This document shows positions 1-28,324 of a stretch of 64,000 nt of DNA, piece after piece. Position numbers and translations under genes: made by a program. The notes beneath the pieces are model-generated. The model did no database searches. It was not told the origin of the DNA and worked only from the letters and a program-made list of their open reading frames with translations. This stretch comes from Octopus vulgaris (Eukaryota), in the NCBI GenBank assembly GCA_951406725.2, contig OX597820.1:30008001-30072000 (forward strand), read 5' to 3'. Position 1 is the first letter of the stretch. Every line of letters begins with the position of its first letter.

Positions 1-1
1 A

Positions 2-34
<33 letters not shown>

Positions 35-854
35 TGGTTTTATGTATGTATGTATGTATGTATGTATGTATGTATGTATTTTTTGTATGTGTGCATATAT
101 GAATATATATATGAATATATTTATATTTATATTTACATGTGCATATCTGGCAATGTTTACATCTACACAATGAGAGCGCTCAGCAACCATCTTGGCAGGC
201 AGTCTAACCGTTTAACAATACCTTACAAAATGGCGTTGCATTTCTCGCCTCATAATTACCGTTCGGTAATCAACTGCTGAAAACGTCCCCAAGAATAAAA
301 CAAGAAAGACATTTTAAGCGGCATTTTCATCGTCATGATCATAATTTATTTAGAAATCTAGTGTGTGTGTGTTATATAGGGAGTAATATGAAAACGTATG
401 TGTGTTCGAAAATATTTGCTGCATTTCAAGCTTGAAATGTAGAATTGCGCTAAAGATAATATGACGAATTTGCTCTAATGTTAAAATAGCGTTAACTGTG
501 CTGTTGTTATTGATGTATGATATTTACACACGGTTACTTTGTTAGAGATAAAAGAATCTTATGTTGCTCTAATTAACAGCATGGAAAATATGTTGGGTCG
601 CATTTGCACCAGTCAGCAAACAGTTTGGTGTAGCGTAAACCTTTCATGTATAGCGCATGGTGACATAGACCAAAACATATGTTTGTTAAACATCTGTGTT
701 GTTCTATTAGATAATAAAAGATACTGACAATTCTGAAATAACAACGAAAAGTATCTCTCCATATATGGCGAACTCTCAGAAATCAGGGTACACACACAAG
801 GTTCCACTAATTTCATTTATAATATTTATAAGTTAGGGGATTATTTTTAACGCT

Positions 855-1265
855 AGAACTTGAAGAAGATAAAGCTATAAATAATAGCGTGCAGAATATT
901 GGGTTAAAAATAATACAACTTCTTTGGAAAGAAGCCGAAGGTAGCCCATGAGATTCGAACCCTACTTCTTCAAGTATGCGAAAATAATATACCGAATCCT
1001 TTTCATCCATTTTCGAAGCTTTGTTCTTACAAGTGAACATTGTAATGTAATTTGAAGTTTTAAAATTTCGAAACTCTGAGGGAATTGAAGCATTTAGTGG
1101 TTGTTGTTTTTTGTTTTTGTTTTTTTTTTTCTTTTGTAAGGAGTGGAGTTCGAAGGAAATAAAGCTATAAATTATAGTATGTAGAATATTGGGTTAAAAA
1201 ACTTGGATAGAAAAAGAAAAATTAATCGTAGGCTGCCCATGGGACACGAACTTACAACCTCTCTA
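855..1265. repeat. Diverged direct duplication (about 295 bp period)
   Basis: ataaagctataaat..ag..tg.agaatattgggttaaaaa...gcccatg.ga..cgaac occurs at about 869 and about 1159. Confidence 0.65.
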
Positions 1266-1426
1266 AACTTACAAAGCATACAAACCATTTTACCAAAGCA
1301 AAACTAGGAATTTGCCCAACTACTTTAGAAATGTGTGTGTGTGTGTGTGTGTGTGTTTATGTGTGTGTGTGTGTTTATGTGTGTGTGTGTGTGTATGTGT
1401 GTGTGTGTGTGTTTATGTGTGTGTGT

Positions 1427-1460
<34 letters not shown>

Positions 1461-1921
1461 TGACGCGCGTGGCTTAGTGATTGGGCTGTTGCACTCATGG
1501 TGGTATTAGAGTACGGTTTTGCTTCCAGTACACAGCGATGCGTTATGTTCTTGAGCAAAACACTGCATTTCAAGTTTCTCCAGTTCCACTCAGCTGGCAA
1601 AAATGAGTAATCCTGCGACGGACTGGCATCCCATCAAAGAAGGATTCTTGGGTATGTACATCGACAGCTCACCAACACACCAGCTCATCCACATATTTAC
1701 AAACACCGGGAACTCTCTTAACTCCAAAGATCTTGTTGCTTTGTTAGCGACCAGCTTGAAATCTCCTAAGAAGCCTTAAATAAAGCTCAAAGAAAAATAC
1801 ATACATACTTACATACATACGTGCATGTATGCATGCATGCATACATACATACATACATACATACATACATACATACATACATACATACATACATACATAC
1901 ATACATACATACATTATATAT

Positions 1922-2110
1922 AAAGGCGGCGAGATGGTTGGATTGTTAGCGAGTCGGACAAAATTCTTAGCGACATTTCCTCCACCATGTTCTGAGTTCA
2001 AATCCGGTCAACGTCAGCTTTGCCTGACATCTCCACGGGGTCTATAAAATAATAACCAGCCAAGCACATGTGTTAATGTAATCGACTTGCCTTCTACACC
2101 TACAATTGCA
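1922..2110 (+). mobile_element. tRNA-derived SINE family B, old copy
   Basis: ggcggcgag..gg...gttagc head and ttctgagttcaaat B-box-like motif, shared with many copies in the window. Confidence 0.7.
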
Positions 2111-2531
2111 AATGACAGCACCCCAGCATGGCCACAGCCTCTGACTCAAACCGATTATAGAATACATGATTACCTATTTTGTTACCGCGACAGAAGTGTT
2201 ATTTTATGCACCGTTGGAAACCTTTTTATGCTCGCCAAATCAACAATTACATTGTGAGGAGAACCATTTTGGTTATCTAGAAATACAAACACAAACCATC
2301 AAATTCCTGTTTCATATATTTCGTCACACTTCTGTGACCTGGTAACTGACTTGATTTCTTGAAATCGTGGTTGGTAGAAATTGTTAGTAAGCAAGGAAAT
2401 ATTCAAATTATGTAAAGTAGATATCGATCAATTCAGCTTCACGGATCGATGAATTAAGTGCAAAAACTCACTGATTGAATACAAGAGATTTAAAAAATCA
2501 ACACACGCTCACGTACGTGTGCGTATATGCG

Positions 2532-2591
<60 letters not shown>

Positions 2592-3026
2592 GGAGCTTCT
2601 TCTATACAGAAGCTCCTTCTATAAAATAAATAATTTAAAAAAATAAAAGAAATTAATAAAATAAAATAAATTAATTTACTCTGATATGTATTGAGTACCT
2701 TATTTACTGTGGTTAACCCGGGACCTACATAAAATACATATGTATATATATAAATATATATACATATGTATGTATGTATGTATTTATGTATGTGGCAAAT
2801 GAAAGACGAAGGATGGAATATACGAGAATACGTATTTATTTTCCCGAGCGTCAAACTAATACACTTGTTTTTTGTTCATACACCTGTCTTCGTCTTTTGT
2901 TTTCTTTAAATCTACACTAAATCTATAAATATTCCAACTTTCGGGCGAAGGACGCCAAGGATCCTATTTTATAAAGGCGGTGCTCCAGCATGGTCGCAGT
3001 CAAATGACTGAAGCAAATAAAAGTAA

Positions 3027-3091
<65 letters not shown>

Positions 3092-3767
3092 TGTATGTAT
3101 GTATGTATGTATATATGTACATATATATATGTATGTGTATGTTTGTGTATATATATATGTACACACACATGTATGTGTGTATCTATATATGTATTATATA
3201 TTTGAATGTGTATGTGTGCGCGTGTGTGTATGTGTCTGTAGCAAACAGTACATTGCGTTTTGTAGCACATAGAAGTGACTGAAGAAACTGGAAAATGGAT
3301 AGCTGTAAAGAGAAAAATAGTATTAAGAACACTTGTACTTTTAGTGTACTTAGAAGACAAGACAATGTGTGTATGTGTGTGTGTGTATGTGTGTGTATGT
3401 GTGTGTGCGCGTGTGAGTGTAGAATCAGACCTGATTCAACTTGCCTGCCAAAATGGCCGATGCTTTGCTTCAACGTTTATACTTATACATATATACATCC
3501 ATTATATATATAATTATATATATATATATATAATTATATATATAATGGATGTATATACAGATACATGTGTGTGTATGTGTGTGTGTGTGTGTGTATGTGT
3601 GTGTATGTGGGTGTGCGAGCGCGGCCCGCTGCTCTAAAGTCAGTAGAATGTAATTTGATTGAGATGAGGCTATAATTTTCACTATATTGAGCAATAACCT
3701 CGAGCGTCCTTGATTCTCTTGGTAAACGGTGGGCTTGCTGGGACGAAATAACGGCAGCGGCAGCAGC

Positions 3768-3823
<56 letters not shown>

Positions 3824-3919
3824 CAACAGCAGCAGCAGCAGCAGCAGAATAGTCAATTAGTTGTAAGATCAGTTACCGTTAGGATTTATTTTATTGACCA
3901 CAGCCTTTGGAGACAGTAT

Positions 3920-4246
3920 TCTTTTACATTTTTAATTTATTTAACTGTGGCCATGCTGCAGCACCACCCTGAAGATTTTTAGTCGAAGAAATAGATCCCA
4001 GGAATTATTTCTTAAGCCTACTAAGATACGGGAACGTCAACACACCATCACTGGTTGCCAAGCAGTGATGGGGATGGACAGACATAGACACAATGACACA
4101 TACACATAGATTCACACACACACACACATACACACACACATACACACACACATACATACATACATACATACATACATACATACATACATACATACATACA
4201 TACATACACACACATATATTTATACAACGGGTTTCTTTCGGTTTCC
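3920..4246 (-). mobile_element. SINE family A (internal microsatellite), partial
   Basis: Reverse complement of the family A 3' half plus an internal (CA)n/(CATA)n tract. Confidence 0.75.
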
Positions 4247-4259
4247 GATTATAAGAACA

Positions 4260-4790
4260 TTTTAGACAGATTAGCGCAGCTTGGCTAGTCTTTTCCAAAT
4301 TGCTTTCAGCCTAGGGACTTACGGATACTCTCCAGAAGTCCCCAGTCTGGCCGTCATAGATACTGGGAGGCATTGTTGAATGTGCCGTCAGTTGAGCCTA
4401 CCCGAGATACGCACTTGTTCAGTGTGCGCGTGTTGTTAATCTTTGGCGTTTTGTTCAACAGCTACGATCGCTTGGAGGACCAACCCTCACTGTTGTCTTG
4501 GTCTATCGCGATGATCAACCGGCCGCTCTTTCTCGAAGCTGGGAGGGTAAGCAGTTTTCCTCTGTCTTGATTGCTATGGCGAAAGCGGTTATGTGATAGC
4601 AAATCTAACAAGACTTAAGACCTGACACTTGCCCCTTCAACCTTTCAAGTTCCGCTTGGAAAGAAAGATGAAGGTGAAGAGGGAGCAGCTTCCCCGCCCC
4701 ACCTCTTCCACGGTAGATTTATTGAAACATGGCTGGGAGCAGCGAATATGACGCGAGAAAACGGACCTAGCCAGAACATGTCTGTAGGCC
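4260..4790 (+). mobile_element. Decayed L1/Tx1-like LINE ORF2 C-terminal fragment
   Basis: Broken frames give a CCHC-like remnant (..ALVQCARVVNLWRFVQQL), VFLCLIAMAKAV and KFRLERKMKVKREQL..RFIETW. More GC-rich than the flanks. Confidence 0.55.
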
Positions 4791-4919
4791 AGAAAACGAT
4801 AAATGAGAGAGGGCACTTGTCTTTCGTGGACAAGTTAATCTAGGTGTTGTAGGATTTCCTTGATTGGTCCAAAATAGCTGTAAGTAAGAAGAAAAATAAG
4901 CGAAAATGCACATTGGAAA

Positions 4920-6782
4920 TAAAAAAAAGTAAAGGCATTTTATGAAAAGTAACGATAGCTATATACAATTAGATGAACTGAGGTAGGAATAAAAGTAATA
5001 AACGTCATTATTGTGAATTGTTAAAGAGATTCAAAGGCATACCGGTTTCGTAAAATTACTGATCACTGCTTTGAATGCGCACCGATTACTGAACGGTGTC
5101 GGGTCTACTAGTCCCTGAGTAAAAAGATTATGTGTAAGGGAGGTAAGTAGTTCTGGATTTCGTGCAATTAGGGTAGATATAAATCTGTAATGTGAATGGT
5201 GTATGAGATGTGTGGGGGCTAGTGGTATTAATTGAAAGGTTAGTAGTGTTCTGTATTATGTTATGTGTTCATTTTGAGTTGTGGAAGATATTTATTGATG
5301 AAAGTTGCCTCTTTATTCATTCATTGCTGTACTGGGGTGTTCTGTGAACATTGATAGATGGGGAAAATTAGGAAATTAGGATTAAGGTTTCTAGCACACC
5401 TTTCTATGTGTTCACTGGCCTGTATCTGTCCGCATTGTGGGTGGCGGATTTGTTCTTTGTAGAGAGTGGTTCTTCGACGGAGTGTTATTCCTGTTTGGCC
5501 AGTATAATGATTACCGCACCCTAAGCATGTCATGGCCTAGATTAAGTTTTCCGAGGCACAGGTGAAATTTGATTTGATCTTAAATATTTCACCTTATTTA
5601 AAGTGGAATTCTGAACCCTCCAAAAGGTGGGGGCATGTACCACAGGTCGACCACATTTTTGCCCTTTTGGTTCCGTTGTTAATGGATATAGTCTTGCGCA
5701 GGTTAATATTTTTTTCAATGATTTCGGTTGCATTTTGGTTTGGATAATTTTGTGTGAGCCTAAAATTTTGTTCATTGTTTTATCTCCTGTGAGGATGGGT
5801 AGATTTTGGATGATAATGTTGAAGGCTTCATTGTTTCTAGGGTTATATGTGGAGATGTATGGGAATATTCTTAAGTCTGGTGTAGTATTACGGTTGACTT
5901 CCCTTAATGTTCGTATGTCTATTTCCTTTGCTCGTTTAATCCCGTAATTTATTAATGATATTGGGTAATGTCTTTTGATTAGTATTGATCTGAGTTCAAG
6001 GAGTCTTCGTTTACGAGAATATGTGTCCGAAACTATGGTACAGATTCTTTTCGCTAGATTATAAGGTATATTAATTTTTATGTGTTTGGGGTGGCATGAG
6101 CTGAATAATAGGTATTGTTTAGAATCTGTGGGTTTATAGAAGATATCTGTTTCGATGTGGTTATTGACTATTTAAATTAGGATGTCAAGAAAAGTGAGTT
6201 GTTTACTGATGTGCTCCATGGTGAATTGTATGTTGCTATTAATATTGTTAAGCATTATTTTGAAATCGAGGAGTTTGTCCATGCTATCTTTCCAAAGTAT
6301 AAAGTAATCGTCCAAATACCTCTTCCAGTTCTTTAAATAGCAATGAAATAAGGTGCCATATTTTTGTAGGGAAGATTGGTATATTTTAAGTTCTAGGTAA
6401 CCCATTACAAGGTTTGCAATCACTGGAGCAGCTCGGGTTCCCATTGCAATTCCACATTCTTGTCGATACTAAACTGTATCGAACATGAAATAGTTGTTCA
6501 GTAGGATGAATTTGAGTGCTGCGATTATGAATCTATGGTTGATGCATCCTGGGATCTCTTCTGGGTATTTTTCTAACCAGAAGGTGATTGCTTTAATACC
6601 ATAATCGTGTGGGATATTGGTGTATAGATTCACCACATCGAATGATACTAACAGGGTTCTTTCAACTATTGTCTTCGGGAGGTAGTTAAGCATGTCTAAG
6701 TCATCTCTGATGAAGCTTTTCACATATTTTACAAGCAGTTTGAATAAGATGTCGAGGAAGTTGCTCAAACGGTAGGTTTCAT
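4920..6782 (-). mobile_element. Penelope-like retroelement (Neptune-type), 5'-truncated, with frameshifted RT and GIY-YIG endonuclease
   Basis: RT motifs LVSFDVVNLYTNIPH (ORF 6469-6768) and MGTRAAPVIANLVMGYLE / WKRYLDDYFILW / IQFTME / LTFLDILI (ORF 6172-6444). Thumb region reads TDIFYKPTDSKQYLLFSSCHPKH. Cys-containing linker KCGRP..TCP. GIY-YIG domain AMTCLGCGNHYTGQT...LRRR...EH (5321-5533). Multiple stops and frameshifts. Confidence 0.93.
5029..5076 (-). ncRNA. Minimal type-I hammerhead ribozyme motif with G3:C8 core variant, in the 3' region of the Penelope element
   Basis: Minus strand reads attcaaagca-GTGATCA-gtaa tt ttac-GAAA-ccgg-TA-tgcctttgaat. Stem I is about 10 bp with one bulge, stem II is gtaa/ttac, and stem III is the palindrome ACCGGT. 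Confidence 0.75.
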
Positions 6783-6819
6783 GATCATGAAATTAGCATT
6801 AGCTTGTCTCACTCTTTCT

Positions 6820-6885
6820 CGAGGAACCCCTAGGAACCTTTTGCGGAATCCTAAGGTTCCAGGGAATCCCGGTTGAGGAACGCTG
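6820..6885. mobile_element. hAT(Charlie)-like MITE terminal remnant
   Basis: Repeated ggaaccc/ggttcc subterminal motifs ending ..ggttgaggaacgctg, resembling hAT MITE ends. Confidence 0.4.
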
Positions 6886-7262
6886 GATTGGAGGATGACA
6901 ACTATGAGAGAACACTTTTGTGGTCAGGGTGATCGTGGTTTCTATGAGGTTTCCACGAGTAGGCCCTTGCAGGTTTCCCCACTCTACTTTTCAGTTTTTG
7001 GGGTTTTTTAGCAGCCTCCATGATTTTGCCAGTCATTCGATGTTAATAAAGAGAGAAAAAAAATACTTATTATCTCGCAGAATCGTTAGAGCCGTTAGTG
7101 CGTCGTACGAAAAAATGCTTAGCGGTATTTCTTCAGATTCTTTACGTTCCGAGATCAAATTCTGCCGATTGTCGACCTTGTCATGAATCCTTTCGGAGTC
7201 GGGAAAATAAAGTACCAGTCAAGTACTTCAAAATTGCTGACCTAGTTTCAAAATTTGAAAGT

Positions 7263-7294
<32 letters not shown>

Positions 7295-7996
7295 GAGGAG
7301 AAGGAGGAGGAAGAGGAGGGGGAGGGGCAGCAGCAGTAGCAGTAGCAGGAGCAAGGGGTGGGAGTAGATATATAGGTGAGAGCAAAGGTAATTGTAAAAC
7401 TGCTACTGCTACTGCTACTACTGCTACCACTACTACTACTTTTCTAAGTTTGGCACAAGGCCAGCAATTTTGTGGGGAAGGCTCAAGTCAATTTGATCGG
7501 CCACAGTATTTAACTGCTATTTATTTTCATTGAACCTGAAAAGGTAAACGGCTAAACCGACCTCTGCTGAATTTGTGGTGGCGGTGGTGGTGGTGGCGGT
7601 GGTGGTGGTGGTGGTGATGTCGGTGAAGAAGATTACAATGATAACGATGATGATGATGATGATGATGATGACGACGACGACGATACTGGTGATGGTGGTA
7701 GTGGTAGAGATGGCAGCAGTGACTATGTATTTGTTTTGTTTGTTTTTTTAATTTCCTTTTTTCGGGGATGCCGGTGGTATAATGGTGGTGGTGGTGGTGG
7801 TGGTGGTGGTTGCTCTGATGGTGAGAGTGGTTGAGGGTGATTGCTCTGATGGTTGTGATTTTATTAAGTGGTGGCGTTGGTTGCAGGTATTATTGTTGTA
7901 GTTGTTGTAGCTGTTGTTATTTAAACACAGCTCAACACTGATCGAGCAAACTGAAGATAAAAAGCCAATTCCATCCGTGACCATCCTGTTTATATC

Positions 7997-8655
7997 GTAT
8001 TCTTTTATTCTTTTACTTGTTTCAGTCATTTGCCTGCAGCCATGCTGGAGCACCGCCATTAAGGTTTTTTTAGTCGAACAAATCGACCCCTGGACTTACT
8101 CTTTGTAAGCCTAGTACTTATTCTACCGGACTGTTTTGCCGAACTGCTAAGTTACAGTGACGTAAACACACCAACACCGGTTGTCAAGCGATAGTTGGGG
8201 AGGGGGGTAAACACAGACACAAACACACTCTCTCTCTCACACACACACACACATATATATAAGACGGGCTTCTTTCAGTTTCCGTCTACCAAGTCCACTC
8301 ACAAGGCTTTAGTCAACCCGAGGCTATACTGGCGAGCTGGCAGAAACGTTAGCACGCCGGGCGAAATGCGTAGCCGTATTTCGTCTGTCGTTACGTTCTG
8401 AGTTCAAACTCCGCCAAGGTCGACTTTGCCTTTCATCCTTTCGGGGTCGATAAATTAAGTACCAGTTACGCACTGGGGTCGATGTAAACGACTTGATCCC
8501 TTTGTCTGTCCGTGTTTGTCCCCTCTATGTTTAGCCCCTTGTGGGCAATAAAGAAATATATACTAGAAGACACTTGGCCAAGGTACCACGCTGTGGGACT
8601 GAACCCGAAACCACGTGGTTGAGAAGCAAGCTTCTTACCACACAGCCACGCCCCT
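7997..8655 (-). mobile_element. SINE family A, full length, interrupted by a family B SINE
   Basis: Reverse complement of the family A consensus, split at 8330-8558. Confidence 0.85.
8330..8558 (+). mobile_element. SINE family B, young copy nested in a family A SINE
   Basis: ggcgagctggcagaaacgttagc...gtcgactttgcctttcatcctttcggggtcgataaattaagtacc...gggcaataaagaaata. Flanked by a short duplication tatact. Confidence 0.9.
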
Positions 8656-8829
8656 ACGTGCAAAAAACCCTTTTATCTCATGTCCTCGTATTTATTTTGT
8701 TTCTGATGGTAAGATATAAATTATGGAAGATTTCGCTGTTATTTCTAGCATATCGAGGGATCATGTTGAGATTACTGATAACAATGGCGGTGGTGGATGA
8801 CAGCAATGACGCTTTTGATGCTTTTTGTT

Positions 8830-9450
8830 GTTGTTTAACCCCAGGTCACTCCTAATCGAGTAGACCTATAATCAAAAGCATTCCAGCCATGGCAGTTCTG
8901 TCATTTTAGGGGAGGTCAGGCAGTCTTTATCTGCGCGGTAGCCATAATCTATCTAATGTATCCTTTTTCTCAAATTAGGAGGGCGAGATTTGAGGAAGCT
9001 TGGCTGCTATTTCTAGCAGGTGCAGCAACCATGACTAGACCTCGCTGTTAACACGTCAGCAGTGTTGTTGTTGTTGTTGTTTAACTCCAGGCCAGTCCCT
9101 GAGTGAGCTGACCTATGATCAAAAGACATTCCAGCCATGACAACTCCATATTTTATTTTCAAAGATTGCATAATCGAAATGTGCCCTTCCGTTTTTAATG
9201 ATGGAAGGCCTGATTCCAGGTAGAGATTTGGCTACTATTTCTAACAGATCGAGTGTTGTTGCTTATGTTACCTGACCCCCCAGGTTGACACTGAACGAGT
9301 CGAGCAATGATCAAAGACAGTCCAATCATGACCACATTATGCAAAATCTCATTTTTTGTTTTTTTTAAAAGGTAACGAAGAGGGTTCTGATCAGAGAGAT
9401 TTTTGGCTGCTATTTCTAGCAAGCCGGGCGACCACGCAAAGGCTCCAGTT
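8830..9450 (-). mobile_element. Three tandem copies of an old (CAA)n-tailed interspersed repeat
   Basis: Unit cccaggtca..ctga.cgag.agacctat.atcaaa..cattccagccatg...atttggctgctatttctagc is repeated three times. Other copies at about 12010-12690, 13515-14115, 17720-18170, 40760-41040, 44430-44515 and 56570-56640. Confidence 0.75.
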
Positions 9451-10656
9451 GTTGTTGTTGGTGGTGGTGGTGGTGGTGGGGACGATGGTGATAGCAATGT
9501 TAACAGTGGTGATGGTGGTGGCGGCTGCAGCAGTACTAGTAGTAGTAGTAGTAGTAGTAGCAGCAGTGATGGCGGTGGTTGCGATCAGAAGTTGTCTCTT
9601 GTTTGTGACTGTTGTGATGTTGTTGTGTAGCCCGGTCAACACTCATCCTTGTTGTTGTTGTTCTTGTAATTATAGATGCGCTTATGTTAATATTTACCTA
9701 GTGTTGTTGTTGTTGTTGTTGTTATCGTTATAAGCTCGGTCAACTTTTGTTCCAAGTTGTTGTTGTTTGTTGTTGCTGTGTTGGTAACAACACTGTGGCG
9801 GTGGTGGTGGTGGTGGTGGCGGCGGTGGTTGTGGCGGTGATGGCGACGGCGGTAGAAGTGATCGTAGCTGTGACTGTTGTTGTTATTGTTATTGTTGCTG
9901 TGGTGATGGTGCTGGTGGTGGTGGCGGTGGTGTTTGTGATAGTCGTGGTTGCGGTGGTAAACTTGTAATGCTGGTTGTACGGTGGTTGTATTTGTTGTTT
10001 GTATTGTTTGTTTGTTTATGTATTTGTTTATTTATTTTTATTTATTTATTTGTTTTTATCTATTTATTTTTTATTTTTATTTATTTATTTTTTTATCACT
10101 TTTGGCAGGTTAGGTCGATAGTTCAAACTACTCATTCTCCTCGCTTCTTGTTATTCGTGATGATGACGACGACGACGGCGGCGGCGATATAGATGATGAT
10201 GATGATGATGATGACGATGATGTTGATGGAGTATTAGTAGTAAGAAAATGACAGAGAGAGAGAGAGAGAAAAGGAGAGAGAAGCGGCGGCAGAATTGATT
10301 AATGATGGTGGTGGTGTTGATGGCGATGATCATGGTGGTTGTGATGATGATGATGATGAGGAGGAGGAGGAGGATGACGGTGCTGACGGCAGTGGTGGTG
10401 GCGAAGCAATGGTGGTTGCTTAAGTGGTTGTGATGATGACGATGACGATTATAATGACGACGACGACGACGACGATGATGATGATAATGATGGTGATGAT
10501 GATGATGATGATGGAGGTGGAGATGGTGGTGGTAGTGGTGGAGATCTGCTTAATCTTGAGAATCTGGGTTGGGTAGGGCTGTGGGGAAGTGCAGAGGGGT
10601 GCTACAGCAACTCTTGCTGCTGCTGTTGTTGTTGTTACTGCTGCTGCTGCTGTTGT

Positions 10657-10691
<35 letters not shown>

Positions 10692-11029
10692 TTACTACTA
10701 CTACTACTACTATTACTGCTGCTGCTGCTGCTGATGATGATGATGTGGTGTGATAATGGTGGTGACGGTGGTATCGGTGGCGGTGGTATTGTGGCGGCGC
10801 CTGCTGCTGTTAAAGCGACCAGCTTGTCGTCATAGTACGTCCCGAGGTTATTGGAGAATTTTACCTTATATGGGCATGTGAGGGATGCGGCAGTAGAGAC
10901 CTCGATGTGTGTATATGTATGTGGTTGTGTGTGTGTATACATATATATATATATATTTGTATATATGATACATATGTATAAACATGTGTGTGTGCTTATT
11001 AATTAGTAAAAGCGTTGTATTTTGATACA

Positions 11030-11077
<48 letters not shown>

Positions 11078-11362
11078 GTGTGTGTGTGTGTGTATGTATA
11101 TATACATGTATGTATATATATATGTGTATGTATGTATATATATATATACTTTACAAATGTGCATATATTAAACATACATAACTTCTATATATATTTGTAG
11201 GTCTGTCTGTGCGTGTATGAATATATTTTGAATTTGTGCATTTGATTGTATAGATATATATATGTATATATATTATATACATATATACATACATGCACAC
11301 ACACACACACATGTGTATATACATGCATAACACGCACGCATTTTATACTAACAACTTCTGCA

Positions 11363-11419
11363 TGCGTTTATAAGACAGCGTGCGTATATAAGACAGCGTG
11401 CGTTTATAAGACAGCGTGC
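11363..11419. repeat. 18-bp minisatellite, 3 copies (tgcgtttataagacagcg)
   Basis: Three near-identical tandem units read directly. Confidence 0.9.
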
Positions 11420-11551
11420 AAGTGTGTATATATGTTATGTATATATTTTATACATACTTTGAAAGTGTTCATATACACCCAAAAACTTTTATATCTTTAA
11501 AGGGGTGTGCAAATATATGGTGCGTATTAATACTTACAACATGGGCGCTGG

Positions 11552-11587
<36 letters not shown>

Positions 11588-11722
11588 TATATGTATATAT
11601 ATAGTATATATATATATATACACATATATGTGTGTATTTGCAAGTATGCATCTTATATATTTGTGATGTCTGTGTATTTATAAGTGTGTGTGTGTGTGCA
11701 CGCGCGTTTGTATATACGCTTG

Positions 11723-11753
<31 letters not shown>

Positions 11754-13452
11754 GTGTTTGAATGTACATATAGGCATAAGTACGTATATATATGCATACA
11801 CACATGTATATATACGAAAGTAGATGCATATATATATACATACATACATATATACATACATACATACGCACACACACATATATATATATATATGTATGTA
11901 TGTGTGTATATATATGCAGCGGTGTGTCTATCGTAGCGTGTGAACTATCAAATTGCGTGTGTGCTGTGCTGCGCTGCACACACGCACACGCATTCAGCAC
12001 ACACGCTTCCACTGTGCAAGGTGTCCGTTTCTTTCTCAAGATGGTAGCCTTAATTAAGGTAGATTTAGCTGCTATTTCTAGCATGTCGAGAGACTACAAA
12101 GTGGCAAGCTTCTTCATTTTTGCACGTACACGTCGATGCGAGCATGCATGCTTGAGTGTGCATGTATGTATAATAATGATGTATGTATGTATGTATGTAT
12201 ATAGCCGGCTATTTCTAGTGTCTGCATGTGTATGTATACGCACACACACACACGAGTTTGCAGCGATATCTTGTATAATTCCATGACAACCCTTAATCGA
12301 CTAGACATATGATCAAAGATATTCTAGTCGTGACCATCACATCGAATTTTATAGACTATCTATGTCTACATTATTCACACTGACCCTTGCTATCTAAACC
12401 GGTAGACTAGCAGAATTGTTAAGGGCATCAGACCATTATTTATTTGAAACCGGCATTTTTCTCTTTGTATTTTTGCCTTCTGAGTTCAAATTCTACCGAG
12501 GTAAACTTTGCATTTAGTTTATTCTGTGGGTCGAAAAAATAATTTATTAGGCAACTATTGTTTTAAAGCAGCATCCTAGACGTTATTTGAATCATTGTAG
12601 AATAAATATAAAGGTAGGGATGTTGCTGGAAATTTGGCTGCTATTTCTAGCAGGTCGACCGACCACGTTGGCAGAAGTTCTCGCCTTTGTACTGCGTGTG
12701 TGTAGTTGTATGTATGTTGAAGACCATGCATTGGATATAAGCTTTATTTGTTTGTGTAAATATGTGTAAACGTATGTTTGTATATACCCCTAATGGTGTA
12801 GAACTTTAATTGTACGAAATATTTTTTTCCATTGGAAATTAAATGTGTGCGTTTGTGTGTGCATATGTGTGTGTGTGTTTGTGTATTTGAGTGTGTAAAT
12901 GTATTTGCACGCATTTGTGCATGTGTATGTATGTTTGCGAGTGTGAGTTTCTCTGTGCATGTGTGTGATGTGTGCGTAAGCATGTGTGCACGTGTGTGTT
13001 TGCGTGTGTGTGTGTGTATGTTGGCGTGTGTATATGATGCATCTGGACTTAAATCATGGCCGAATGCGTAAGATGTTCTCTTCACGTTCACGAGATCCAG
13101 GGTTCGATTCCATGGCGTGGTTTCCTGAGCAAGATCAAAACCAAAACTTTGGGATTGAAACTAGCTGGACGGAAATTGTGCCAAAACTCATCGGTTGCCC
13201 ATAACCGGTTAATAATTCAAACGGGTCCTGCTTAGTCACTATGATGCACTGATTTTTGTATGAGAATCATATTAAGAATATACGTGTCTACGGAGTACAC
13301 AACCACTTTCTCTATATAATGCAATCAGCTGACGGCTCATTAGATAGATTAACTTAATGAAATACATCGCGCAATTGACGGAGATCCACTTCGCAATCCT
13401 TTTTTACCCCTTTTGTTTTATATGCATGCATGTTTATGAGAGCACATAGGTA

Positions 13453-13511
<59 letters not shown>

Positions 13512-13738
13512 CTTTGCCCCTGGTCAGTGGTTCCAAACGAGTAAACTGATGATCAAAGGCATTTCACACGTGACCACCACGCCTCACATCCCGACTGCAA
13601 TATCAAATGCAACTTTACACACGCACACAAACACACACACACACACACACACACATGCATGCACATACACACACACACACACAAACGCACGCACGCACAC
13701 ACACAAATATATATATATATATACATACATACACACAC

Positions 13739-13771
<33 letters not shown>

Positions 13772-14158
13772 CGTATATACATATAAATATGCGTGTATAC
13801 ACACACGCATACACACACCTGTGCGTATATATATATGTGTATGTATGCATGTATGTATATGTATGTATGTATGTATCTCGTTGCATGTGTTGTCGCCCCT
13901 GGTCAACCATGAACCGGAAGACCTATAATCAGAAACATCCCTGTCATGACCATCCCGTCCTTTATTTAAGCATAATGCTCCATAATGCACCCAAGACTAC
14001 ATCATCAAATGTGTCGTTCTTTTCAATACGGTAAGTATATTTATAAATGAAGAAGGGAGATTTGGCTGCTATTTCTAGCAAATCGAGCGATCTCATAGAG
14101 GCTCCTTCGTTGTTCCGTTGCATGTGCTTGTGTGTGAATCGTGTGTTAGTGCCAGTGG

Positions 14159-14211
<53 letters not shown>

Positions 14212-14665
14212 TGTGTGTGTGAGTGCGTACGTGCGCGCGCACGTGCGTATATATGTGTGAGTGAGCCCTAGTAAGTTGAATATGTTATGTGAGCTTAGGT
14301 TCTGAAAAAGGATGTAGATGTGTGTGTATGCATGTGTGTGTGCGTGTGTGTATGTACATACAGTTGTATGTGAGTGTATATATTGAGTTGTATGTATTGA
14401 TATATGTGTCTGTATGAATGTTTAATAAGAGTGAATAAAAAAATGCGTGTGTGCAAACATGTACAATAGTTCAAATATATGAATATACACGTGCGCATGT
14501 GTGTGTGTGTGTATGTGTGTGTATGCGTGCGTGTGTGTGTACATGTCTAAGCGTACTAATAAATGTATGTGAATACGTTTGCAGACGAGTATTATGTGTG
14601 TAATTAATGTATACGCTTGTTTATTTGTTTGAAACTCTGTGTGTGTGTGTGTGTGTCCAGGTGCT

Positions 14666-14697
<32 letters not shown>

Positions 14698-14939
14698 TGT
14701 ATGTATGTATGTATGTATGGTGGGGTGGTTTTAATGGCAAGCAGCTGACAAGATATAGAACAATGAACAAGAAAGCTAGTTTGACGAAAAAAATAAAAAT
14801 TTCTCATGTGATAATTATACATACATTCACTATGGTATGTTTTATATACGTCTACACCTCTCCCTACACACACATACTCACACACACACGCACATGCGCA
14901 CGCAAATTTTACGTATGCTTCTATCTATCTATCTATCTA

Positions 14940-15415
<476 letters not shown>

Positions 15416-26700: not shown

Positions 26701-27478
26701 TGGACACAGGGAGGGCACCTGGTCGATGATTCTCAAATAATATTCAGTGGTGGGGGGTGTTGGCGGTAGAGATGACTTCCTCTAGTTGTTGTACACAGTG
26801 TTGTTTGCCTCTTTTGACCGGTTAGTAAAGACAGGGTAGAGGCGTTCCGAGGTGGTGTGTTGTGTGTTATGGGTTGGTGAAGTATATTGCCTTAAATAAG
26901 TAGTGATCAAGTGATCCGATAGTTGAAGAGAATGCTCACCTAAGAAAGTTTCATAAGAGCTAAACATGACCACAGTTGTCTCCCGTGCTACCAGAAAGGA
27001 CTAAAATAATATTAGTTAATAAGCTAATGTTTGCTCTCACCGCAATAATTTTTCAATTAAATTTTTAACTATTCACCACAGTAAACATGTTAACACTAGC
27101 TTAATTATTGTTTTTTCATGAAGAGAACAACTCTGCGTAATTAATCATAGTGCAATATACTTTCATCAAAGCCAAATTGAGACACACTAGGGAGTTTTGC
27201 TCTCACGTCCGTGATGCTGCTACGGTTGCTGCTTTTCTTGCCTCTGCTCTTTTTGCTGCTCTAATTTGCTGATACACTCACAAGCGTTTTAGGCCACATC
27301 CAAAGCAAAGCATTTTGAATAATTAATCTCTGACATGCAAACTTGTTGTCTCCTCTCTCGGCTTTTATAAAATAGAATCTAAAGAGACTATTGTTGGTCG
27401 GCGTCGGTGAGTCGTTTATTATTTAGGAGAAAAAAAATCAACTAAAACTGTGCGAGGAAATTGTCGTAGGAAGTCGAA

Positions 27479-27514
27479 TATCCAACGTTTCGGACAGAGT
27501 CCTTCTTCAGAGAA
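27479..27514 (-). ncRNA. Minimal hammerhead ribozyme motif
   Basis: Minus strand reads tct-CTGAAGA-a ggac tct gtcc-GAAA-cg-TT-gga, with an ACGT palindrome as stem III. A stem II-deleted inverted relic lies at about 27618-27647. Confidence 0.6.
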
Positions 27515-28324
27515 AAGATGACAGAAGTTAAATTAAAGAGTGATAACAATGCTAAACATCCGGTTCTGAGTTAGGAAGTAAAATTCTGCGGTCCCTCTCT
27601 ACTTTCATTCTCGACAACTTTTCCCCGAAGAAACGTTAGATATTTCCAATATCACGGTAAGTTCACTGTGTTCTTTTTCTCGATTTTATTATTTTGATTA
27701 TTTTGAAGCATTAGAAGGTAATTATATTACAGATGACCAAATAGTTTGTACGTAGGAGAAGAAATACCTTGTAGTATTTCTACAAGGTATCCTTCCGTTC
27801 TGAGTTCACTTCCTGCTGAGATTAATATTGTCTTTCATGCTTTTGGATTCAATAAAACAGAGTACCAGTCAAGTACCAGGATTAATGGTGTCGGCAACTA
27901 CACTCCACAGAATTGCTGGCCTTGTGCCCAAATTAGAAACAATTATTAAGTAAAATGAATGTAAAATGAATATATATATATATATATACATGCATATATG
28001 GGTACAGGACGTCACAAACAGCAAACAACATGAAGTACGAAAACAAATGAGTTATATACGCAAACAACGAGAGTAAAAGATGGAAAACAGGACAAGTAAC
28101 ACAAAGACCAACCCTTCATCAGTGGTCGACTGTCTATCTACTCCTCATTTCGAGCATTCAACGACAATATGAGTCTTCGAAGACAGCTGCTTCCATAAAT
28201 ACCAAAACATAATTTTGGATTTATGGAGAGTCAAAGCCGGGAACAAAAACAGGACAGTGGAGACACACAAGGAAACCGAACGAAAATAAACATGGAGGGT
28301 CGTTAGACCAGAACGAGAGGGTAT

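Follow-up and report, generated by a model that had tools for sequence, protein, structure and literature searches.

A minimal type-I hammerhead motif with a G3:C8 core pair in a Penelope-like element of Octopus vulgaris, and probable compensatory changes of the 3:8 pair among its relatives

We studied a hammerhead ribozyme motif at positions 5029-5076, on the minus strand, of a 64,000-nucleotide stretch of Octopus vulgaris DNA (contig OX597820.1, positions 30,008,001 to 30,072,000; "the window" means this whole stretch). The motif is a complete minimal type-I hammerhead whose sole core departures are G3 and C8. It sits in the pseudo-long terminal repeat (pLTR) of a Penelope-like element (PLE) remnant, and relatives of this element carry other bases at the same two positions.

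The motif and its host element

The coordinates of the motif and of its host element are given in Table 1. In the window motif, U4, G5, A6, A9, G12, A13 and A14, the A15.1-U16.1 pair and the NUH cleavage triplet are all canonical, and this core and triplet were invariant across 12 representatives of the clade. The motif forms a three-way junction with stems I and II, the latter weak, and has its 5' and 3' ends in stem I. The C3/G8 identity of the CUGANGA consensus is replaced by G3/C8, which is a Watson-Crick pair. The cut site in Table 1 was placed by the NUH rule.

The first-pass annotation had described a type-I hammerhead with a 10-bp bulged stem I and a core changed only at positions 3 and 8, and the sequence confirms this. 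Stem II had been drawn as gtaa/ttac; since this pairing would leave a loop of only 2 nt, a stem of 3 bp with a 4-nt loop is the realistic form. A relaxed hammerhead scan gave 2 matches in the window versus a mean of 0.06 (maximum 1) in 100 block-shuffled windows. Among the 12 representatives, 85% of cells were paired, compared to 25 to 47% in slid controls, and stem covariation was modest. Rfam returned no match at E <= 10 for positions 4882-5260 and no hammerhead among the 150 matches listed of 179 for positions 1-15000. Rfam thus misses the motif, in line with the first-pass annotation, which had expected CUGANGA-based searches not to see it. A repeat search of the window found microsatellites only.

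The motif lies in sense with the PLE open reading frame (ORF), behind the Neptune-type remnant, and its assignment to a PLE is thereby upheld; the distance to the endonuclease stop codon, which ends at 5261, is 184 nt and not about 250 nt. The ORF contains 5 in-frame stops and one frameshift. By tblastn it matches residues 251-751 of the PLE protein P0003 with 61% and 50% identity, while Pfam gave a weak RVT_1 match only. Elements of the C-terminal endonuclease-containing Neptune/Nematis type combine a reverse transcriptase (RT), a CX2-5CxxC linker and, at the C-terminus, a GIY-YIG domain with CCHH (PMC8557442). In agreement with this type, the linker cysteines were present in 21-23 of 30 clade copies and H1 in 27 of 30, whereas H-to-Y and stop changes are private to the window copy. 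The linker and CCHH features thus point to a PLE of the Neptune/Nematis type, the trees described below containing no named Neptune or Nematis references.

Short and inverted copies start at 5072-5088, an arrangement typical of PLEs. Family homology in the window copy, which is 3'-clipped or interrupted, stops at 4882, where other copies carry on with a common tail about 30 nt long. The window holds a single motif of the ACCGGU class and no tandem partner in cis. Direct tandems occur elsewhere, in one family member (L213) and in sister clades (L218 and L222). The window copy is likely an inert fossil.

Table 1. Hammerhead motif and host element in the window
Feature	Positions	Strand	Basis
Hammerhead motif, minimal type-I, G3:C8 core	5029..5076	minus	Sequence, relaxed scan, family copies
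Core strand GUGAUCA; G3 = 5066, C8 = 5061	5060..5066	minus	Sequence; 3:8 covariation
Stem I, 5' arm	5067..5076	minus	Sequence
Stem I, 3' arm, C5036 bulged (10 bp); predicted cut between 5040 and 5039	5029..5039	minus	
Stem-loop II, 3 bp + 4-nt loop (1-3 bp across the clade)	5050..5059	minus	
GAA 5049-5047, palindromic ACCGGU 5046-5041 (predicted intermolecular stem III), A17 = 5040	5040..5049	minus	
pLTR	4882..5088	minus	5' edge inferred from starts of short and inverted copies (5072-5088)
PLE ORF, 5'-truncated and broken: RT, CX2-5CxxC linker, GIY-YIG endonuclease	5261..6780	minus	

The 3:8 pair in the family and in the genome

We searched 2.8 Gb of genome for relatives of the motif; its repeat landscape and a named Octopus homolog at 54% would agree with an octopus source. 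A DNA search gave 1,546 candidates, 40 of which were scored (92-100% identity). Searching with a 35-base pattern that left only positions 3 and 8 free yielded 49 exact matches: A3:U8 in 36 matches, G3:C8 in 8, G3.U8 in 2, A3.C8, U3.C8 and A3.G8 in one each, and the canonical C3:G8 in none. A core-blind pattern gave 218 matches versus 7 for its control, and the first 100 listed of these 218 were mostly ATGATTA, with no CTGATGA. When 55 pLTR copies (54 distinct loci) were aligned, 34 had AT, 17 GC and 4 other bases at positions 3 and 8, and no other column of about 220 fully separated the G3:C8 from the A3:U8 group. Letters A3 and U8 made up 50-72% of the depth in the contigs of organisms C and D, and the remainder was mostly the window's letters.

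These counts refute the views that a canonical CUGAUGA family has here a private double mutant, or that the assembly is at fault, to which we now give practically no credence. The canonical state is absent from the exact matches, G3:C8 recurs in the aligned copies and in 114 motifs genome-wide (see below), and the window's letters reappear in organisms C and D; G3:C8 is a heritable subfamily state. GTGATCA is nevertheless not fixed in the family, as the first-pass annotation had proposed to check, A3:U8 being in the majority. The covariation of positions 3 and 8 is real, as seen in the aligned copies, the tree and the diagnostic columns. G3:C8 is common to several sister subfamilies, and in one derived subfamily both bases have changed, giving A3:U8. 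U3:A8 and A3:U8 are the states of neighbouring clades, and C3:G8 that of a retrozyme-like repeat.

A genome-wide census was made with the pattern N3-UGA-N-N8-AG, 6-14 nt, CGAAACCGGU; it covers the ACCGGU class with intact CpGs only, and its copies are not independent events. It gave 7,000 matches, versus 12 for a reversed-pattern control, and 7,001 when summed by class. Positions 3 and 8 formed a Watson-Crick pair in 6,551 of the 7,001 motifs (93.6%): U3:A8 in 5,129, A3:U8 in 1,203, G3:C8 in 114 and C3:G8 in 105. The remaining motifs comprised 237 with G8 and a base other than C3, 115 with A8 and non-U3, 61 with U8 and non-A3, and 37 with C8 and non-G3. The complete lists of the last two classes showed scattered decay and no fixed mismatch family.

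Sampled loci of the three non-canonical paired classes were often found just downstream of PLE ORF remnants, in sense. The C3:G8 motifs lie mostly in tandem, in retrozyme-like repeats. All 30 loci sampled from this class belonged to a repeat of about 359 nt, and only one had a PLE match nearby. This tandem unit is 86% similar to a dispersed U3:A8 copy, and one U3:A8 relative of the repeat adjoins a PLE endonuclease remnant. Young tandem arrays of the unit lie at G000:C1:20002279-20004541 (L151-L157) and similar places, and its dispersed relatives L148, L233 and L234 have U3:A8. At G000:C1:26208500-26215000 (L221) an intact 784-aa PLE ORF stands before a U3:A8 hammerhead, and its upstream pLTR is inverted. 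The window itself holds a second hammerhead (27477-27516, minus strand), with a canonical CUGAAGA, an extra base after A9, a 4-bp stem II, a palindromic ACGU, a short stem I and no match to P0003 nearby; it is probably a solo pLTR of a different PLE family.

Two other causes of the G3:C8 state were considered. Lower activity of G3-C8 in a C17 context is mentioned, with the data not shown there, in PMC3884650, and in our sample 0/30 G3:C8 loci (L061-L090) had a C17 able to pair with G3, these loci being of a single clade and non-independent. Avoidance of a 3-17 trap pair is no general rule, because U3/A17 families are common. Palindromic self-pairing of UGAUCA was dismissed, because the A7 and A3:U8 subfamilies lack it.

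Order of the 3:8 changes

A DNA tree was built, with columns 3 and 8 removed, from the 50 copies in which 330 or more bases were aligned; shorter copies were left out. In this tree G3:C8 forms an older grade, in which sister families with 75-91% identity to the window are included, whereas A3:U8 forms one derived clade (94/89) that requires 1 change. The root rests on the most divergent sister families, two of which (L210 and L216) the protein tree places outside the remaining clade. Of 1,006 columns, only 8 set the A3:U8 clade apart from the G3:C8 copies closest to it, and columns 3 and 8 are among them. The chance that both would fall among these 8 columns is P = 5.5e-5 for the named pair and about 9e-4 over 17 pairs.

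The protein trees gave four starred clades (SH-aLRT, the Shimodaira-Hasegawa-like approximate likelihood ratio test, 99-100), with U3:A8, U3:A8/U3.G8, A3:U8 and G3:C8/A3:U8, respectively. U3:A8 is basal among them, which implies at least three double switches. These are quick trees, in which the order among three of the clades and the order inside the window's clade are unresolved. A metagenome scan gave 2 loci, one of which (L181) combines a relative that shares 46% identity with P0005 and, behind it, a hammerhead with the canonical C3:G8. No other outgroup has a known 3:8 state, and this one is on a long branch. The earlier picture of G3:C8 as a direct change from C3:G8 is probably wrong, as the basal and sister clades carry U3:A8 and A3:U8. 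One apparently young A3:U8 element (L227) was rejected as such and excluded as a nested insertion, because its ORF groups with the U3:A8 clade and 946 nt separate the end of that ORF from the motif.

The trees also bear on the idea that the motif is a decaying relic, its matched changes at 3 and 8 being chance substitutions that hitchhiked with successful master elements. The copy counts are not independent, and pair switches on the trees number only about 4-5; transitions such as G-to-A and C-to-T are common, and non-paired subfamilies exist. This account would still have to explain why two of the eight diagnostic columns fall on the 3:8 pair, why further double switches separate the other clades, and why the C8 and U8 mismatches are scattered with no fixed family. 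We therefore regard it as quite improbable.

Fold, cleavage and selection

The monomer is not a stable fold (z = +0.76 versus shuffles): with stem III it reaches -0.1 kcal/mol, and its minimum free energy (MFE) is -6.4. The double-hammerhead dimer is predicted at -20.5 kcal/mol, near the cofold MFE of -22.3. A palindromic, reduced stem III (ACCGGU) and a dimer predicted to be stabler than the monomer are both features of minimal PLE hammerheads, which cleave weakly as dimers (PMC4209133).

Pairing between positions 3 and 8 marks the active hammerhead conformation (PMC3884650). Engineered C3G/G8C partly rescues the PLE hammerhead of PAc (PMC11167929) and was the sole rescuing swap in a full pairwise scan (PMC9901934), so that among the swaps G3:C8 has the strongest laboratory backing. 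We consider it probable that an extinct Neptune-type PLE lineage handed down this minimal type-I hammerhead in its pLTR, and that G3:C8 is one step in a series of likely selected compensatory swaps at 3:8. As this pair is confined to the catalytically competent fold, the ribozyme was probably active, though at a slow rate. Two palindromic ACCGGU loops would join as a 6-bp stem III and give a double hammerhead in transcripts of tandem elements; this dimer would cleave slowly after GUA, between 5040 and 5039, and selection would act during retrotransposition, on master elements and not on host copies. We are less sure of a broader claim, for which the chances seem to us slightly short of even, namely that repeated compensatory flips have taken the 3:8 pair of this animal's PLEs through each of the four Watson-Crick identities and that G3:C8 and A3:U8 are the first natural lineage-fixed purine-3 cores of active ribozymes.

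Several observations weigh against selection for cleavage. The A3:U8 clade has a bootstrap of 94, just below the starred level, and both protein trees are quick ones. Stem II is paired in only 72% of its cells among the 12 representatives, and a monomer misfold of equal energy pairs A6-U7-C8 with GGU. Decay of the core (2.8% versus 3.5-4.5% elsewhere in the copies) is roughly neutral; since the terminal branches also have a median of 0.044 and 10/10 extended clade copies checked had no long intact ORF, the clade is dead, and any selection was on master elements. Subfamilies without a Watson-Crick pair have spread as well. A C3.A8 mismatch subfamily of the retrozyme-like repeat was amplified, in part in tandem (23 identical among the first 100 of 115), and a young U3.G8 wobble subfamily accounts for 92 among the first 100 of the 237 G8 non-C3 matches; most copies of the latter (L218, L188-L202) lack one base at the stem I junction. 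Strict pairing is therefore not required for spread. The functional variant suggested by the first-pass annotation is thus a candidate only, given also that the window copy is a solitary, truncated and broken fossil.

RNA ends, insertion ends and insertion itself were also considered. Two RNA runs of organism E, a related organism to which they were assigned by species label (143 and 118 reads, shallow and mostly A3:U8), showed no end pile-ups and none at 5040/5039 at this low read depth. In a small sample of unselected secondary copies, 0/13 started at the cut site and 6/13 started 37-49 nt upstream of it, as would be expected if templates were uncleaved or if transcription started shortly before the motif. 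Finally, PLE insertion in vitro is independent of hammerhead cleavage (PMC11167929).

Three further observations concern these subfamilies and ends. The C3.A8 subfamily (for example C4:80857199-80857948) is possibly an intermediate. The U3.G8 locus L218 (G000:C1:70847000-70854500) has a near-intact ORF in a direct tandem with a 3,977-nt unit and is the best candidate for asking whether cleavage is dispensable. Short and inverted copies have their 5' ends concentrated at the hammerhead's 5' edge, 29-55 nt upstream of the predicted cut (window 5072-5088 and the equivalents in sister families), possibly a transcription start or an RT template-switch hotspot.

Such results could also mean that the fold was selected for a role other than cleavage, for example as a protein-bound structure or as a 5'-end structure of the pLTR transcript; cleavage would then be negligible and any 3:8 pair, a wobble included, would suffice. 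It would accommodate the dominance of U3:A8 and A3:U8 (6,332/7,001), which are poor pairs in the laboratory, where G:C alone gave rescue in the pairwise scan (PMC9901934). It would likewise suit the amplified wobble and mismatch subfamilies, the insert 5' ends that cluster at the motif's 5' edge and away from the cut site, and the PAc system, in which insertion uses unprocessed RNA and the hammerhead cleaves only with protein present (PMC11167929). It is harder to reconcile with a 3:8 pair that belongs to the active conformation (PMC3884650), with the invariance of the remaining catalytic core and NUH triplet in the clade, and with the weak dimer cleavage of minimal PLE hammerheads (PMC4209133). 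We find this alternative unlikely, and we favor inheritance of a slow, cleaving ribozyme.

The window motif resembles the PLE hammerheads of Cervera & de la Pena 2014 (PMC4209133) in its pLTR location, type I topology, palindromic reduced stem III, predicted dimer, retained G10.1-C11.1 and many solo copies. Unlike them, it has G3:C8 or, in its relatives, A3:U8, no extra base after A9 and a stem II of 1-3 bp; their consensus is CUGANGAH, and the part of their Fig. S3 alignment compared here holds only C3:G8, U3:A8 and one U3.G8, with no cephalopod. Natural U3-A8 covariants are known from Perreault et al. 2011 (PMC3088659) and from the Cercyon PLEs of Schistosoma (PMC4209133), and this compensatory state is the commonest one in the present genome. 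Those covariants keep the pyrimidine-3/purine-8 order, whereas the present pairs have the opposite polarity, with a switch that a tree allows one to trace. No natural G3:C8 or A3:U8 was found in the open full-text literature, which did not include Lunse 2017. The swap is identical to the engineered C3G/G8C of laboratory mutants (PMC11167929, PMC9901934) but is natural here, and known from sequence. According to the review PMC6765202, the variants of Lunse, Weinberg & Breaker 2017 are PLE-linked, with a short stem III and dimer cleavage, as here. The non-LTR retrozymes (bioRxiv 10.64898/2026.07.22.740005) find their likeness in the C3:G8 tandem unit of about 359 nt, while the window motif is in the remnant of an autonomous-type element and not in a tandem array.

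Natural U3:A8 was already known, and the tree-resolved, genome-wide flipping of the pair is more interesting than the single copy. In vitro, PLE hammerheads have only weak activity; the one reconstituted system can insert without them, and Naiads lack them. Double substitutions that flip a tertiary pair along a datable tree of master elements are comparative evidence of selection on the active fold. The genome offers a ready natural series for cleavage comparison (C:G, U:A, A:U, G:C, U.G and C.A), and in a genome of this kind, searching by motif or with Rfam leaves thousands of animal hammerheads uncounted. If the pair has indeed passed through all four identities, CUGANGA searches would miss nearly all of the ACCGGU class (6,446/6,551 paired motifs), and there would be evolutionary evidence that PLE master elements were selected for a catalytic fold.
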